In this document: one piece after another, positions 943 to 31,959 of the stretch
Numbering within the stretch: the stretch's first letter is position 1
Layout of the letters: every line of letters begins with the position of its first letter
Assembly: GCA_003278045.1 (NCBI GenBank)
Contig: QCHG01000003.1
Location: 23,029-87,028, forward strand
Length of the DNA stretch: 64,000 bases
Source: Prochlorococcus sp. AG-402-A04
GTDB taxonomy: Bacteria > Cyanobacteriota > Cyanobacteriia > PCC-6307 > Cyanobiaceae
Direction of reading: 5' to 3'
The notes under the pieces: model-generated
The model's input: the letters and a program-made list of their open reading frames with translations, nothing else
Database searches by the model: none
What the model was told of the DNA's origin: nothing
Position numbers and translations under genes: made by a program

Positions 943-1017
943 AAAATTATTTAGTATAAATAACAACATCATATATTCTTAATTCGAGGGAAATTAACTT
1001 CAAATTTATATTCTTGG

Positions 1018-1158
1018 ATGCGTTTAGCGATCTTACTTGGTTTTATTTTTGGGGTAACTCACGGAACTGTTGTTTCCGAAAGTTATTCTGCAAACAATTA
1101 TGAAAATAATCAATTATTTTTTACTCAAAAAAATTCAAATATATTTTCATCACTTTAA
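1018..1158 (+). CDS. small hypothetical protein (46 aa) with hydrophobic N-terminus, possibly a remnant
   Basis: Hand-translated: MRLAILLGFIFGVTHGTVVSESYSANNY...; below the ORF-track cutoff. Confidence 0.35.
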   Translation: MRLAILLGFIFGVTHGTVVSESYSANNYENNQLFFTQKNSNIFSSL

Positions 1159-1236: not shown

Positions 1237-1252
1237 TGTAGCGTAGACTACA
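1237..1252 (+). promoter_or_regulatory. NtcA-binding site overlapping the -10 box (repressor geometry)
   Basis: TGTA-gcgtagac-TACA matches GTA-N8-TAC with canonical flanks. It contains a TAGACT -10 (1245-1250) 6 nt before the riboswitch start. Confidence 0.75.
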
Positions 1253-1256
1253 TAAA

Positions 1257-1315
1257 CGTTCATCTCGTTTAACGAGCCGCATTAAGATTGAAGCCAAGGA
1301 ACGGGGACTTCAGTC
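1257..1315 (+). ncRNA. glutamine-II riboswitch (Downstream-peptide RNA motif)
   Basis: P1 is CGTTC/GGAACG, the P2 hairpin is CTCGTT/AACGAG followed by CGCA, and the pseudoknot is GATTGAAG/CTTCAGTC. The ATG lies 4 nt downstream. Confidence 0.88.
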
Positions 1316-1319
1316 AAAA

Positions 1320-1649
1320 ATGAAATTTAGTCACATAACTATTATGTCTAATAACGTATCTACCTCAGTAAGTAGTAACAATATTACTGCTGTATTTGCA
1401 GGTTTTCTTGGAGCATTTATTGTTGGTTCTCTTGGAGTCCAACTTGTAAGAACCCAAAAGCCTTCTTTTCAATCTCAACCATTAAAAGTTCAACCAGTTA
1501 TCGCTCATCAATCAACTTTATGGGCAGCTTTAGGAGAACAAGATACTCCTATTGTTAAAAATAAAGTTTCTAATGCAAAAACTACAGGAGTTGTCCCTGT
1601 TATAGGTTCTGAAGCAACTCTTTGGGCTCCTCTAGGTTTAGGTAATTAG
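1320..1649 (+). CDS. riboswitch-controlled membrane-anchored hypothetical protein with two PVI-x4-TLWAxLG repeats
   Basis: 109-aa ORF with one hydrophobic helix (ITAVFAGFLGAFIVGSLGVQLV) and an internal repeat, followed by a terminator. Confidence 0.75.
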   Translation: MKFSHITIMSNNVSTSVSSNNITAVFAGFLGAFIVGSLGVQLVRTQKPSFQSQPLKVQPVIAHQSTLWAALGEQDTPIVKNKVSNAKTTGVVPVIGSEATLWAPLGLGN

Positions 1650-1673
1650 TAAATTAAGTCTTTTAATAAACCG

Positions 1674-1699
1674 AAGGGGGTTTTTAACCCCCTTTTTTT
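1674..1699 (+). terminator. rho-independent terminator
   Basis: AAGGGGGT/ACCCCCTT stem followed by a T-tract. Confidence 0.85.
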
Positions 1700-1781
1700 A
1701 TTAATTGCATTAAAAAGATGATTGAAAATTTTCAATCCAATTTATGGATAACTATAAATTAAATCAGGGTTTGAAGACAAT

Positions 1782-1826
1782 GTAATCGTAGATACCAACA
1801 GCTTTTTTATTAATTGATTATAAATT
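1782..1826 (+). promoter_or_regulatory. NtcA-activated (class II-type) promoter
   Basis: GTA-atcgtaga-TAC (1782-1795), then 23 nt, then TATAAA (1819-1824). Predicted +1 near 1831. Confidence 0.62.
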
Positions 1827-1830
1827 AAAC

Positions 1831-1930
1831 ACACGAGTTAACCCGTTCCAATTTGTTGACTCTGAGGTTTTAACCGTTGACTCCTTATCTACTTCTAGTT
1901 GTGACTCGCTAGTTTCAAGATTCAAAAACG
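1831..1930 (+). ncRNA. candidate structured sRNA or regulatory 5' leader
   Basis: GAGTTAAC/GTTGACTC stem (G-U pair favours the + strand) with loop CCGTTCCAATTT. There is a second GTTGACTC copy, and the stretch is GC-richer than its flanks. Confidence 0.5.
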
Positions 1931-1950
1931 GTATTTATGTATCTTAAATT

Positions 1951-2088
1951 ATGGAAAAAAAAATCGCAAAGAAATACGCCGATCTTATAGTCCAGGCTAA
2001 TAATTCAACAGGCAGAAAAGAAACTTTGTCATTGATTAAACAAGCAACAAAATTAAAAACCAAACTTGATCAATACGAAATGATGTAG
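1951..2088 (+). CDS. small helical hypothetical protein (45 aa)
   Basis: Hand-translated: MEKKIAKKYADLIVQANNSTGRKETLSLIKQATKLKTKLDQYEMM. Resembles picocyanobacterial island microproteins. Confidence 0.7.
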   Translation: MEKKIAKKYADLIVQANNSTGRKETLSLIKQATKLKTKLDQYEMM

Positions 2089-3597: not shown

Positions 3598-3726
3598 CTA
3601 GAAAATACCTGGAAGAATTTGACCAGTAAAATAATAAGCTCCCACAAGAGCGAACATTCCAAGCATTGCTGCTTTACCATTAAGCTTTTCAGCTTTTTCG
3701 GTCATGATTTTTTTTGCGAATTCCAT
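3598..3726 (-). CDS. hli: high light inducible protein (42 aa)
   Basis: MEFAKKIMTEKAEKLNGKAAMLGMFALVGAYYFTGQILPGIF, with AExxNGxxAM and TGQIxPGIF motifs. Missed by the ORF track. Confidence 0.92.
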   Translation of the reverse strand: MEFAKKIMTEKAEKLNGKAAMLGMFALVGAYYFTGQILPGIF

Positions 3727-3752
3727 AACAAAGTGAAATAAATTATATCTAA

Positions 3753-3794
3753 AAACTAATTATTCAAATTTTAGAATGATGTAGTTTTTTCTAC
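3753..3794 (-). promoter_or_regulatory. NtcA-activated promoter of the minus-strand hli
   Basis: On the minus strand: GTA-gaaaaaac-TAC, exactly 22 nt, then TAGTTT. This is the canonical GTA-N8-TAC-N22-TAN3T. Confidence 0.75.
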
Positions 3795-4001
3795 CAAATT
3801 GATATCTTTCTAAGGATTTTAAAAAAAAATACTTAAACAACGAATTGAACTCTTAATAAAGTGCGCGATAATCTGTAAAGCGTAGCAAGCCTAAAAAACA
3901 ACTATTTAAATGTATATGCTACGGATCTGTGACAGTTATGTAGTAAATATCTTGAAAATAACTTAATTTCGGCTAAATACTTTACATTTATTAATAGTAG
4001 T

Positions 4002-4019
4002 GTTACATTAGTTAACAAT
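4002..4019 (+). promoter_or_regulatory. HLR1-like (RpaB) direct repeat upstream of the hli cluster
   Basis: GTTACATT-ag-TTAACAAT against the consensus (G/T)TTACA(T/A)(T/A)-N2 repeat. An extra TTTACATT lies at 3981. Confidence 0.6.
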
Positions 4020-4031
4020 TACACAACTTTA

Positions 4032-4238
4032 ATGGCTAATTCAAACGTTACTACTGAATCAGGTGGCAGACAGAATATGTTTCCTACTGAGACACGTCCT
4101 TACATAGATGAGTCTGTTTCATACGACAGCTACCCACAAAATGCAGAAAAAGTTAACGGTCGTTGGGCAATGATTGGCCTTGTTGCGTTAGTAGGTGCTT
4201 ACGTTTCAACCGGACAAATTATTCCTGGCATTTTTTAA
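4032..4238 (+). CDS. hli: high light inducible protein
   Basis: AEKVNGRWAMIG ... TGQIIPGIF. Confidence 0.93.
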   Translation: MANSNVTTESGGRQNMFPTETRPYIDESVSYDSYPQNAEKVNGRWAMIGLVALVGAYVSTGQIIPGIF

Positions 4239-4498
4239 TGAGTCCACTTTCAGGTTTCTTAGCTGTAATTGTATTCTTTACAGCCATCCTCGTTGCTTAT
4301 TTAACCAAGCAATTTCAAAACGAAAATTTAAACTATTCATCTTCTAATCAAATGAAAAACACAAACACAAAAGTCAAAACAATCGAAAAAGAAAAAGTTA
4401 TTGCTGAAACTCTTAACGGGAGATTCGCAATGCTTGGATTAATTGCTGCTGTTGGAGCATACCTAACAACAGGCCAAATAATTCCTGGTTTTGTTTAA
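4238..4498 (+). CDS. hli: high light inducible protein with N-terminal hydrophobic extension
   Basis: AETLNGRFAMLG ... TGQIIPGFV. Start moved to ATG 4238, which overlaps the previous stop (TAATG). Confidence 0.9.
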   Translation: MSPLSGFLAVIVFFTAILVAYLTKQFQNENLNYSSSNQMKNTNTKVKTIEKEKVIAETLNGRFAMLGLIAAVGAYLTTGQIIPGFV

Positions 4499-4533
4499 AA
4501 ACCTACTATTTAACATTTCTACAAATCAGAAAA

Positions 4534-4662
4534 ATGGAAAATTCAAAAACAACTTATTGGCAAAATGCCGAAAGGACTAATGGAAGAATGGCAATGATGG
4601 GCTTATTTGCATTAGTTGTAAATTATGGCTTATTCGGATGGATAATCCCAGGAATTTTTTAA
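4534..4662 (+). CDS. hli: high light inducible protein (42 aa)
   Basis: MENSKTTYWQNAERTNGRMAMMGLFALVVNYGLFGWIIPGIF; missed by the ORF track. Confidence 0.92.
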   Translation: MENSKTTYWQNAERTNGRMAMMGLFALVVNYGLFGWIIPGIF

Positions 4663-4902: not shown

Positions 4903-4920
4903 ATTAGAAAAAATATTTGT

Positions 4921-4960
4921 AAAAAAAAAGAGATTGTTTCTTAGCTAAAAACAATCTCTC
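4921..4960 (-). terminator. terminator for the minus-strand genes
   Basis: GAGATTGTTT/AAACAATCTC stem preceded by an A-run. Confidence 0.65.
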
Positions 4961-5052
4961 AATTACCTAATTCTTACATGAAAATTTCAAGTAAGCTTTC
5001 AGATCTTAACTGATTTGTTTTTATAGTAAATCCGTAGAAATGCTTTTGTAAT

Positions 5053-27027: not shown

Positions 27028-28393
27028 TAATTTATTAAGAGCTCCAAACCAAAGTATTGAGGAAACTGGCTATGCCTGGTATGTAGGTAACGCTAGATTA
27101 ATCAATTTATCTGGACGTTTATTAGGAGCTCACATTGCTCACTCGGGACTAATAGTCTTTTGGGCGGGAGCAATGATGCTCTTCGAGGTAAATCATTTTA
27201 CTTTTGATAAACCAATGTGGGAGCAAGGTTTAATCTGTATGCCACACGTTGCAATGTTTGGCTACGGAATAGGCCCAGGTGGTGAAGTTACTGATATCAT
27301 GCCTTTCTTCCAAGCAGGCGTGGTTCATTTGATAGCTTCCGCTGTACTTGGTTTTGGTGGTATTTACCATTCATTAGCAGGTCCAGAAAAACTTGAAGAA
27401 GATTTTCCATTTTTCTCAACAGATTGGAGAGATAAAAATCAAATGACAAATATCCTCGGATATCATTTGATTGTTCTTGGTGTAGGTGCACTAGCATGGT
27501 CAGTAAACTGGTGTTTTATTGGCGGTGCATATGACACATGGGCACCAGGTGGTGGTGAAGTCAGACTTGTAAACCCAACCCTAGATCCAAGAGTTATTCT
27601 TGGTTATCTATTCAGATCTCCATGGGGAGGAGCTGGTTCAATAATCGGTGTTAACTCCATTGAAGATATTGTTGGTGGTCATGTTTACGTGGGTATTACT
27701 GCAATTATTGGAGGAATATTCCATATCTTTACCAAACCTTTCGGATGGGCAAGAAGAGCTTTTATCTGGAATGGTGAAGGATTATTAAGTTACGCTCTAG
27801 GTGGAATTTGTGTAGCAAGTTTTATTGCCTCAACATTCATCTGGTTTAACAACACTGCTTACCCTTCAGAGTTTTATGGCCCAACAAATGCTGAAGCTTC
27901 ACAAGCTCAAAGCTTTACTTTCCTAGTGAGAGATCAAAGAATTGGAGCTAACGTAGGTTCAACAATGGGACCAACAGGACTAGGTAAGTATCTCATGAGA
28001 TCTCCTACTGGTGAAATTATATTTGGTGGTGAAACAATGAGATTTTGGGATTTCAGAGGGCCATGGTTAGAGCCTTTAAGAGGACCTAATGGATTAAGCC
28101 TTGAGAAAATCCAAAATGATATTCAGCCTTGGCAGGTAAGAAGAGCTGCTGAATATATGACTCATGCTCCAAACGCTTCTATCAACTCTGTTGGTGGAAT
28201 CATTACAGAGCCTAATGCTGTTAACTTCGTCAACTTAAGACAATGGTTAGCCGCAGCTCAATTCTTCCTAGGATGGTTTACATTCATTGGTCATCTTTGG
28301 CATGCTGGACGTGCTAGAGCAGCCGCTGCTGGTTTCGAAAAAGGAATCGACAGGAAGAGTGAACCAGCTCTAGAAATGCCTGATTTAGATTAA
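27011..28393 (+). CDS. psbC: photosystem II CP43 protein
   Basis: GTG start overlapping psbD (VETPFN), [10 protein letters not shown] and [11 protein letters not shown]. Confidence 0.98.
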
Positions 28394-31656: not shown

Positions 31657-31745
31657 AAAAAGACCCTTGAATGGGGTCTTTTAAGGTTTTACTAAATCAA
31701 GTGTTTCCTTGTTTCCACTGTTTCAGTAAAACCACTCCTTCACAC
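31655..31745 (-). ncRNA. yfr2: Yfr2-family cyanobacterial sRNA
   Basis: 5' GTGTGAAGGAG, hairpin GGTTTTACT/AGTAAAACC presenting GGAAACA-A-GGAAACA, terminator AAAGACCC/GGGTCTTT. A TAGTTT -10 lies 6 nt before +1. Confidence 0.9.
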
Positions 31746-31803
31746 GTAAATAAACTATCTCATTAAATTCTTTTTCGTGGAAGGGCTAAATGAAATGTTG
31801 CTT

Positions 31804-31823
31804 AACTGTCACATGTGCCAGTT
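31804..31823. promoter_or_regulatory. palindromic operator upstream of Yfr2
   Basis: AACTGTCAC-AT-GTGCCAGTT is a near-perfect inverted repeat. Confidence 0.55.
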
Positions 31824-31959
31824 TTTCACTTCTGGACATAAAGAAAAAATACCCTAATTCAGAGAAAAAGGTATTTACTTATTAGAGATTAACGTGTGAA
31901 CAGTTTCTGACTTGTATTAATCACTTAGAAAAGGCATAAATTATCTACAGTATTCTTTG

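Follow-up and report, generated by a model that had tools for sequence, protein, structure and literature searches.

Does the DNA downstream of a glutamine riboswitch in Prochlorococcus encode a second, nitrogen-controlled RNA, and is that RNA directed against its neighbour? The locus lies near the start of the window, by which we mean the whole stretch of 64,000 nucleotides that was analysed (Prochlorococcus sp. AG-402-A04, contig QCHG01000003.1), taken from a genome of 31.7% G+C. The window opens at the edge of a nitrate cluster comprising genes for nitrite reductase, a NarK-family transporter, a molybdopterin nitrate-reductase-like gene, a mobA-like gene and moaA. A sequence-only reading had proposed a two-RNA switch at this place, in which an NtcA-activated RNA with a loop antisense to the neighbouring riboswitch silences it, and possibly glutamine-riboswitch mRNAs throughout the genome, under nitrogen limitation. 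The features concerned are collected in Table 1. Elsewhere in the window, Rfam recognizes Yfr19 (4916-4996), IsrR (27425-27608) and Yfr10 together with Cyano-1 (31680-31911), and a further GTA-N8-TAC box (3781-3794) lies upstream of a run of short ORFs spanning 3598-4662, which we take to be hli-like. The names tyrS, rpoA, desaturase and PII are likewise presumed assignments based on the sequences.

Table 1. Features of the riboswitch and loop-RNA locus, in window coordinates.
Feature	Position	Strand	Remarks
NtcA box GTA-N8-TAC	1238-1251	+	Covers the TAnnnT hexamer TAGACT (1244-1249), -10 of gene A; from sequence
Glutamine-II riboswitch aptamer	1254-1313	+	Rfam RF01704, 64.6 bits (cut-off 33)
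GGAACGGG, 3′ strand of the pseudoknot (PK) helix (G35-G42) in the P2 loop	1298-1305	+	Predicted target
Gene A, 109 aa	1320-1649	+	Second ATG at 1344 would give 101 aa
Intrinsic-terminator-like hairpin 3′ of gene A	1673-1696	+	Works on both strands
NtcA box GTA-N8-TAC, activator spacing	1782-1795	+	23 nt before the -10
Weak -10 TATAAA	1819-1824	+	Last T missing; predicted +1 at 1831-1833
Hairpin 1 with loop CCGUUCCAAUUU	1835-1862	+	8-mer CCCGUUCC at 1842-1849
3′ domain	1863-1940	+	Stem 1873-1878/1927-1932 enclosing a variable inner hairpin; U-rich stretch next
ORF B, 45 aa	1951-2088	+	Multicopy family, likely co-transcribed; predicted helical hairpin

The glutamine-II leader of gene A and the NtcA box over its -10 were found as the sequence-only reading had described them, and the position of the box would be that of a repressor. 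The NtcA box of the IF17-like gene of strain MED4 is arranged likewise over the -10 (PMC6212724). The predicted target had been described as the 3′ strand of P1; its coordinates are right, but in the crystal structure GGAACGGG corresponds to G35-G42, where it supplies the 3′ side of the pseudoknot that binds glutamine, and P1 is the name of the equivalent strand in glutamine-I (PMC6698751). The same source reports that the PK helix is weakly formed without glutamine and that two separate RNAs can together form it (PMC6698751). For other Glutamine-II members, glutamine binding and switching-on of translation are reported (PMC6212724, PMC6698751), and a MED4 glutamine riboswitch was functional as a GFP fusion in Synechocystis (PMC6212724).

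Gene A matched no Pfam or NCBIfam family and does not encode DUF4278, the usual product of genes behind Glutamine-II riboswitches; its protein has a hydrophobic N-terminal segment and a TLWA-x-LG motif repeated twice. Rfam identified five glutamine-II riboswitches in the genome (R1 to R5 below), two of which lead DUF4278 genes. A riboswitch at G000:C3:1348-1410 on the minus strand (L211) precedes a 56-aa basic ORF, not DUF4278, and no NtcA box was seen at its start. We also noted a natural variant with a compensated pseudoknot, CGUCC/GGACG (G000:C7:1847-1909, L031:1960-2022, and loci L047, L087 and L119), which has an NtcA-like box at its start and precedes a 33-aa ORF without a Pfam match.

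The second NtcA box was also confirmed in activator spacing, 23 nt ahead of the TATAAA hexamer. In the window-type copies of this region the GTA and TAC halves are conserved at 0.995 and the spacer to the -10 at 0.89; a sigma-70 scan did not list the hexamer at 1819-1824, and T1819 and A1820 are invariant across 15 aligned copies. As had been claimed, the 8-mer CCCGTTCC (1842-1849) and GGAACGGG (1298-1305) are exact reverse complements of each other. A hairpin predicted at -7.7 kcal/mol, a stability equalled by 1 of 200 shuffles, takes up seven of the eight bases of the 8-mer in its loop; opening of the loop costs about 1 kcal/mol. The whole stretch 1828-1930 is no more stable than shuffles (z -0.16). 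The 8-mer by itself is not rare, with 8 copies in the 1.3 Mb genome against 4.8 expected, four of them being riboswitch antisense and two the loops of the small-RNA family described below. Around the 380 NtcA-box orientations, the 8-mer occurs 30-70 nt downstream in 2 (0.02 expected) and GGAACGGG in 3, an interval picked after the data had been seen. The distance from GTA-N8-TAC to the -10, about 22 nt in NtcA-activated sRNAs, is 23 nt for the window RNA and 22 nt for its stand-alone relative. The predicted arrangement is one in which the riboswitch targets are under repressor-position NtcA boxes and the RNAs under activator-position boxes.

DNA searches recovered the region in 40 of 101 genomes, all within the genus, with some matches spanning the ORF only. 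When homologues were aligned, as the sequence-only reading had suggested, the loop of the window-type copies proved no more conserved than their stems or 3′ strand. Conservation of the 8-mer was 0.97 in 73 window-type copies, with stems and 3′ strand at 0.97-0.99 and flanks at 0.81-0.89, and 31 copies independent of the pattern search gave the same picture. In 26 hand-picked copies the three helices were 95.5% paired and the covariation score was reached by none of 500 shuffles; pairs with a two-sided change numbered 2, a value reached by 47 of 500 shuffles. One stem pair of hairpin 1 occurs as U-G, G-U, U-A and C-G.

The proposed pairing of this RNA with its own neighbour in particular was not supported by the comparison of genomes. 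At the window's locus the riboswitch and gene A were present in all 15 copies with moaA and in none of the 21 without it, so that gene A and its riboswitch are gained and lost together with the nitrate cluster, and the loop is intact in 12 of the 15 copies with the riboswitch and 15 of the 21 lacking it. The riboswitch follows the nitrate cluster and the loop persists without it, which gives no support to a special pairing between the two. At a second window-type locus, a divergent variant riboswitch is situated some 730 nt ahead of the ORF, and at the remaining loci none was found in the stretches examined. Proximity by itself says little, since a riboswitch is also near an ORF B paralogue that lacks the loop.

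By its sequence, the window RNA belongs to a wider, conserved and unnamed small-RNA family, of which it is an accessory copy joined to an ORF. A pattern of NtcA box plus loop, run over 396 genomes of the bacterial family, matched 84 of 93 in the window's genus (g1, likely high-light Prochlorococcus) and gave control-level counts elsewhere. The stand-alone member in the window's genome (L270, G000:C28, about 990-1058, minus strand) is some 70 nt long, carries the loop CCCGUUCCAA in a different stem, ends in a 3′ hairpin with a U-tail and has no downstream ORF; it is flanked by pstB and two small ORFs on one side and by a convergent gene on the other. Blastn found it in 83 of 94 genomes of the genus. 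Among the 63 genomes at least 95% complete, 56 had the stand-alone member and 53 the exact pattern; of three near-complete genomes off the exact pattern, two kept the 8-mer and one had a C-to-U change. One genome has a decayed copy at the usual place and an intact, relocated one.

In the sister genus g55 (genomes of 1.6-2.0 Mb, likely low-light), a sequence model matched all 9 genomes and the pattern 12 of 13. At all nine g55 loci the loop is the same and the 3′ hairpin is a new, G+C-rich one. The RNA is preceded there, at a distance of 616-679 nt on the same strand, by a glutamine-II riboswitch gene (Rfam-confirmed in 3), and the copies have the left NtcA half-site only. In an alignment of 18 members with a mean identity of 56%, 8 of the 14 invariant columns fall within the 10-nt loop motif; stems, 3′ parts and positions vary across the subfamilies and the loop hardly does. 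Intermediate forms were seen in L317 (G149:C11) and L298 (G114), which join a stand-alone-type first hairpin to a 3′ stem with a long window-like inner insertion; in L298 the loop is altered, and a riboswitch follows about 535 nt further downstream. We found no intact member in G023, G001, G116 and G191, each with 1-3 riboswitches, nor any in the larger-genome genera searched, with up to 9 riboswitches. Phages and viral contigs gave no match. Short-pattern matches in GC-rich genera were discarded as noise, and those in g42 as the leader of a PII-like gene, judged from its sequence.

The family is apparently undescribed, as compared with Rfam and the Yfr RNAs named here. Over 1700-2200, nothing relevant in Rfam matched at E≤10, and over the homologous loci nothing reached the gathering score, although the nearby Yfr10, 11, 13 and 19 were recovered. 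Identity with Yfr8/9/11/16 was rejected, there being no Rfam match and the 5′ ends and primers differing by eye; for Yfr28, Yfr29 and Yfr106-108 the published probes or locus differ (primers compared by eye), and the motif is absent from 8 supplements. Homology to NsiR4 was compared through Rfam only. The open-access part of the literature gave no account of the loop RNA or of any RNA that pairs in trans with a glutamine riboswitch.

Published data contain a transcript at the homologous place in MED4. From the 395-420-nt spacing at homologous loci, the RNA was expected to start at about 689140-689168 on the plus strand, and the MED4 start-site tables give an orphan plus start site at 689153, between PMM0725, a phosphate ABC ATP-binding gene, and the convergent gene PMM0726 (PMC5607370). 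Its unnormalised values are 337 in starved cells at 12 h (Table S9), 398 in replete cells at 24 h (S10) and 601 in starved cells at 24 h (S11), and it is missing from Table S8, replete 12 h (PMC5607370); relative to the neighbouring site 687667, its value rises at 12 h but not at 24 h. PMM0726 itself is up 2.3-3.6 (apparently log2) under nitrogen deprivation in Tables S3-S5 (PMC5607370). The Red Sea metatranscriptome of Lott 2020 lists at this locus an unnamed plus contig, 689140-689230 (about 90 nt, 219 reads, no Rfam model), and a minus contig of 29 reads (PMC7368042 supplement 6). Metatranscriptome runs overlaid on the window copy were uninformative on start, end and level, being contigs that also span intergenic DNA. 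That 2020 table, from the group of Voigt et al. 2014, names yfr27 and leaves the loop-RNA contig unnamed. Because it is listed, unnamed, in an ocean metatranscriptome table, the stand-alone RNA is a candidate in-situ marker of nitrogen status.

What the loop binds was approached by a target scan, an approximate one based on gapless helices and accessibility, without pseudoknots. The interaction of the window RNA with 1298-1305 was predicted at -9.3 kcal/mol, accessibility included. RNA 1831-1890 was run against 1568 start regions, a set that excludes ORFs shorter than 60 aa and hence riboswitches R2 and R4. For the window RNA, R3 ranked second and the window riboswitch fifth, with R2 and R4, outside the set, at -10.5 and -11.0 kcal/mol. 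When each of 1564 start regions was scored by the worse of its energies with the window and the stand-alone RNA, riboswitches came first (R3 -11.1, R1 -8.4; best other -8.2; outside the set, R2 -10.8 and R4 -10.1). The window RNA's own top target, ranked above the riboswitches, was the start of what is presumably tyrS, the gene for tyrosyl-tRNA synthetase, which 1863-1882 matches over 20 bp (-14.2). It was ruled out, as the site drifts in relatives (duplex -28 to -11.5) and the RNA segment does not; nor is it among the top targets of the stand-alone member.

Complementarity covers 8-9 bp in four riboswitches and 7 bp with one G-U in the fifth, a variant, whose interaction is only -4.5 to -6.8. 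With permuted loops, 6 of 1500 reached the mean energy and 23 of 1500 the worst of the five. The variant riboswitch beside L031/L047 faces an unchanged loop in the adjoining RNA, with a G-U pair instead of a compensatory change; no covariation between loop and target is visible, because both sides are nearly invariant. The 8-mer spans exactly G35-G42, so that, in prediction, an accessible conserved seed is complementary to the conserved ligand-binding part of a riboswitch, as in IsrR-mnrS. That the loop binds these riboswitches we consider likely, most of that confidence going to an outcome in which their genes are held off.

The alternative that keeps the most weight, unlikely as we judge it, is a real nitrogen-linked sRNA whose loop binds a protein or another mRNA, the riboswitch match being a coincidence or the trace of an origin from an inverted riboswitch. 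By eye, hairpin 1 read on its reverse strand looks like P2 of the riboswitch, a likeness that inversion would give without any function; GGAACGGG also occurs within two coding sequences, and the other parts of the RNA are equally conserved inside each subfamily. A remnant of inversion, however, would not retain only the complement of the invariant core, over two genera and amid changing stems. No start-region target outranks the riboswitches for both members, and the strongest single alternative, the tRNA-synthetase match, drifts freely in relatives.

On balance, we think it probable that a nitrogen-starvation-induced family of RNAs pairs loop-to-loop with glutamine-II riboswitches and holds their genes off. 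NtcA would activate transcription of the loop RNA when nitrogen is scarce, and the loop, CCCGUUCC(A), would form a kissing duplex with the riboswitch P2 loop. With G35-G42 occupied, the pseudoknot could not form and would not capture the CGC linker strand; the linker would remain paired near the start codon, keeping translation off at any glutamine level, an alternative outcome of pairing being degradation of the mRNA. Together with repression of the same genes by NtcA, this would make a coherent feed-forward loop that controls IF17-like (DUF4278) genes and others of the glutamine-ON kind, and the loop RNA would fill the place of NsiR4 in Prochlorococcus. Of the earlier proposal, the core, an NtcA-led RNA whose loop would pair in trans with glutamine riboswitches across the genome, gains independent support from the loop kept in stand-alone and g55 members and from riboswitches being the best shared predicted targets; a special pair with the neighbour is not supported.

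The direction of the effect was modelled by constrained folding, in which withholding the PK and linker strands stood for the glutamine state and withholding G35-G42 alone for the RNA-bound state. In R2 and R4 the start region opened in the glutamine state (0.8-0.9 vs 2.1-3.7 kcal/mol free) and stayed closed in the RNA-bound state (3.4-3.7 kcal/mol); R1 and R5 shifted little and R3 was ambiguous, and the off direction was thus clear for two of five riboswitches. A model lacking the linker strand showed no switch. On these foldings, blocking was taken as the probable outcome. Counted against the favoured reading as a whole are the duplex of 8-9 bp only, the dispensable neighbouring riboswitch, the modest induction signal, the riboswitch-bearing genomes without an intact member and the half-site in g55.

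Binding without silencing, whereby the loop would imitate the ligand-bound state or protect the mRNA, or the abundant riboswitch RNAs would sponge the loop RNA, appears improbable to us. The lack of a clear direction in three of five riboswitches would suit it, R3 being as open in the bound as in the ligand state or more so, as would the report that Yfr6 remains abundant in N-starved MED4 (PMC5607370). Yet R2 and R4 are opened by the glutamine-state constraints and not by the RNA-bound ones, and activation would run counter to the repression of the same genes by NtcA.

The window copy differs from the stand-alone RNAs in what follows it, and the idea of a simple free sRNA had to be given up here, as the RNA runs into a conserved reading frame. 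Window-type copies at several loci retain the NtcA box, hairpin 1 and the 3′ domain, and then always ORF B, which starts about 16-20 nt past the 3′ stem in each copy examined. The 3′ domain is the counterpart of the 3′ hairpin of the stand-alone members and may possibly act as a leaky terminator; no strong terminator was found ahead of the ORF at 1951. Relatives of ORF B occur in all 124 genomes of the genus. Its differences comprise 74 synonymous and 79 non-synonymous codon changes in an ORF that adjoins the RNA in every copy, and its structural model has two helices (pLDDT 89). No protein family matched, and assignment by fold was abandoned, the matches being tied at Z≤8.5 to a generic helical hairpin. 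The window copy is a candidate for one transcript with a base-pairing region and a translated ORF, a dual function of the SgrS/RNAIII kind.

This arrangement allows another explanation, concerning the window copy only: a cis-acting leader of ORF B, in which 1873-1878 and CCGUU of the loop would be rivals for AACGG at 1927-1931, the trans role being lost or confined to the stand-alone members. We give it little credence. The constant spacing to ORF B would fit, and loop variants are commoner in window-type copies than in stand-alone members: the exact 8-mer is present in 70 of 80 rows (one locus being present twice), and of the 10 variants 6 still pair through G-U and 4 break the pairing. Other ORF B paralogues, moreover, have different structured leaders without the loop. 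Nevertheless, the loop is intact in 8 of the 9 rows with a broken ORF B (some breaks being possibly assembly slips in A-runs), and stand-alone members keep the loop with neither a downstream ORF nor such a pairing partner. A minus-strand riboswitch or decoy was rejected: the reverse strand mimics P2, but has no Rfam match, and the G-U pairs, the promoter and the published start site point to the plus strand.

Most other ORF B paralogues have unrelated leaders with neither NtcA box nor loop. Another conserved type of leader was seen 170 nt upstream of ORF B paralogues (L037, L181, L196-L206); its 5′ end is complementary to the stretch just before the start codon, and neither an NtcA box nor an Rfam match was found for it. 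Together with the antisense RNA asMED4_15721, it is reminiscent of type I toxin-antitoxin leaders, although the peptide here is a cationic and not a hydrophobic one. By eye, the 5′RACE sequence of PMED4_15721 in MED4 (PMC2518516 supplement 2) reads as a homologue of ORF B that has an antisense RNA.

If the favoured reading is true, these RNAs are the missing RNA arm of nitrogen control in the most abundant marine phototroph, the role that NsiR4 has elsewhere, and an instance of a small RNA that addresses a riboswitch class through its conserved core and not a single mRNA. Somewhat short of an even prospect, we would put the wider picture of an anti-riboswitch RNA family, in which one NtcA-induced loop would dock on the invariant ligand-binding strand that all glutamine-II riboswitches share and override their whole regulon, and extra copies on islands, joined to a gene for a small protein, would spread with newly acquired riboswitch genes, for example beside the nitrate cluster. 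For experiments, the stand-alone RNA (about 70 nt) is a better object than the window copy, and the structure of the riboswitch aptamer is solved.

Several known systems resemble parts of this scheme. In Synechocystis, NtcA activates NsiR4 and represses gifA, a GS-inactivating-factor gene, which is the same feed-forward logic as predicted here, although NsiR4 blocks gifA translation and not a riboswitch aptamer (PMC6212724); NsiR4 is stated to be absent from Prochlorococcus (PMC6191309). In MED4, Yfr14 is also an RNA antisense to a glutamine-II riboswitch transcript, that of Yfr6 (PMC2518516, PMC6212724), but it is cis-encoded opposite Yfr6, 252 nt long and phage-induced, whereas the loop RNA is trans-encoded with an 8-9-nt loop (PMC2518516). 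Yfr28 of Prochlorococcus is likewise about 70 nt and N-starvation-induced in high-light strains, and differs in its ftsQ-ftsZ locus, its sequence and its predicted targets ppc and ftsZ (PMC7368042). OmrA-btuB and NgncR_162/163-gcvT combine a small RNA and a riboswitch on the same mRNA, these RNAs acting at the translation start region or apart from the aptamer and not on the ligand-binding helix (PMC11162775, PMC13104608). In its mode of action the loop RNA would resemble IsrR-mnrS (yybP-ykoY) of Staphylococcus aureus, where a riboswitch is overridden by a trans-encoded small RNA that base-pairs to a conserved segment forming the ligand site; IsrR is reported to respond to iron and to have multiple targets, and the riboswitch it acts on is a single, transcriptional one with a different signal (bioRxiv 10.1101/2024.09.30.615890). 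The loop RNA, unlike IsrR, appears to be aimed at four to five copies per genome of one translational riboswitch class, concerned with the same nutrient.
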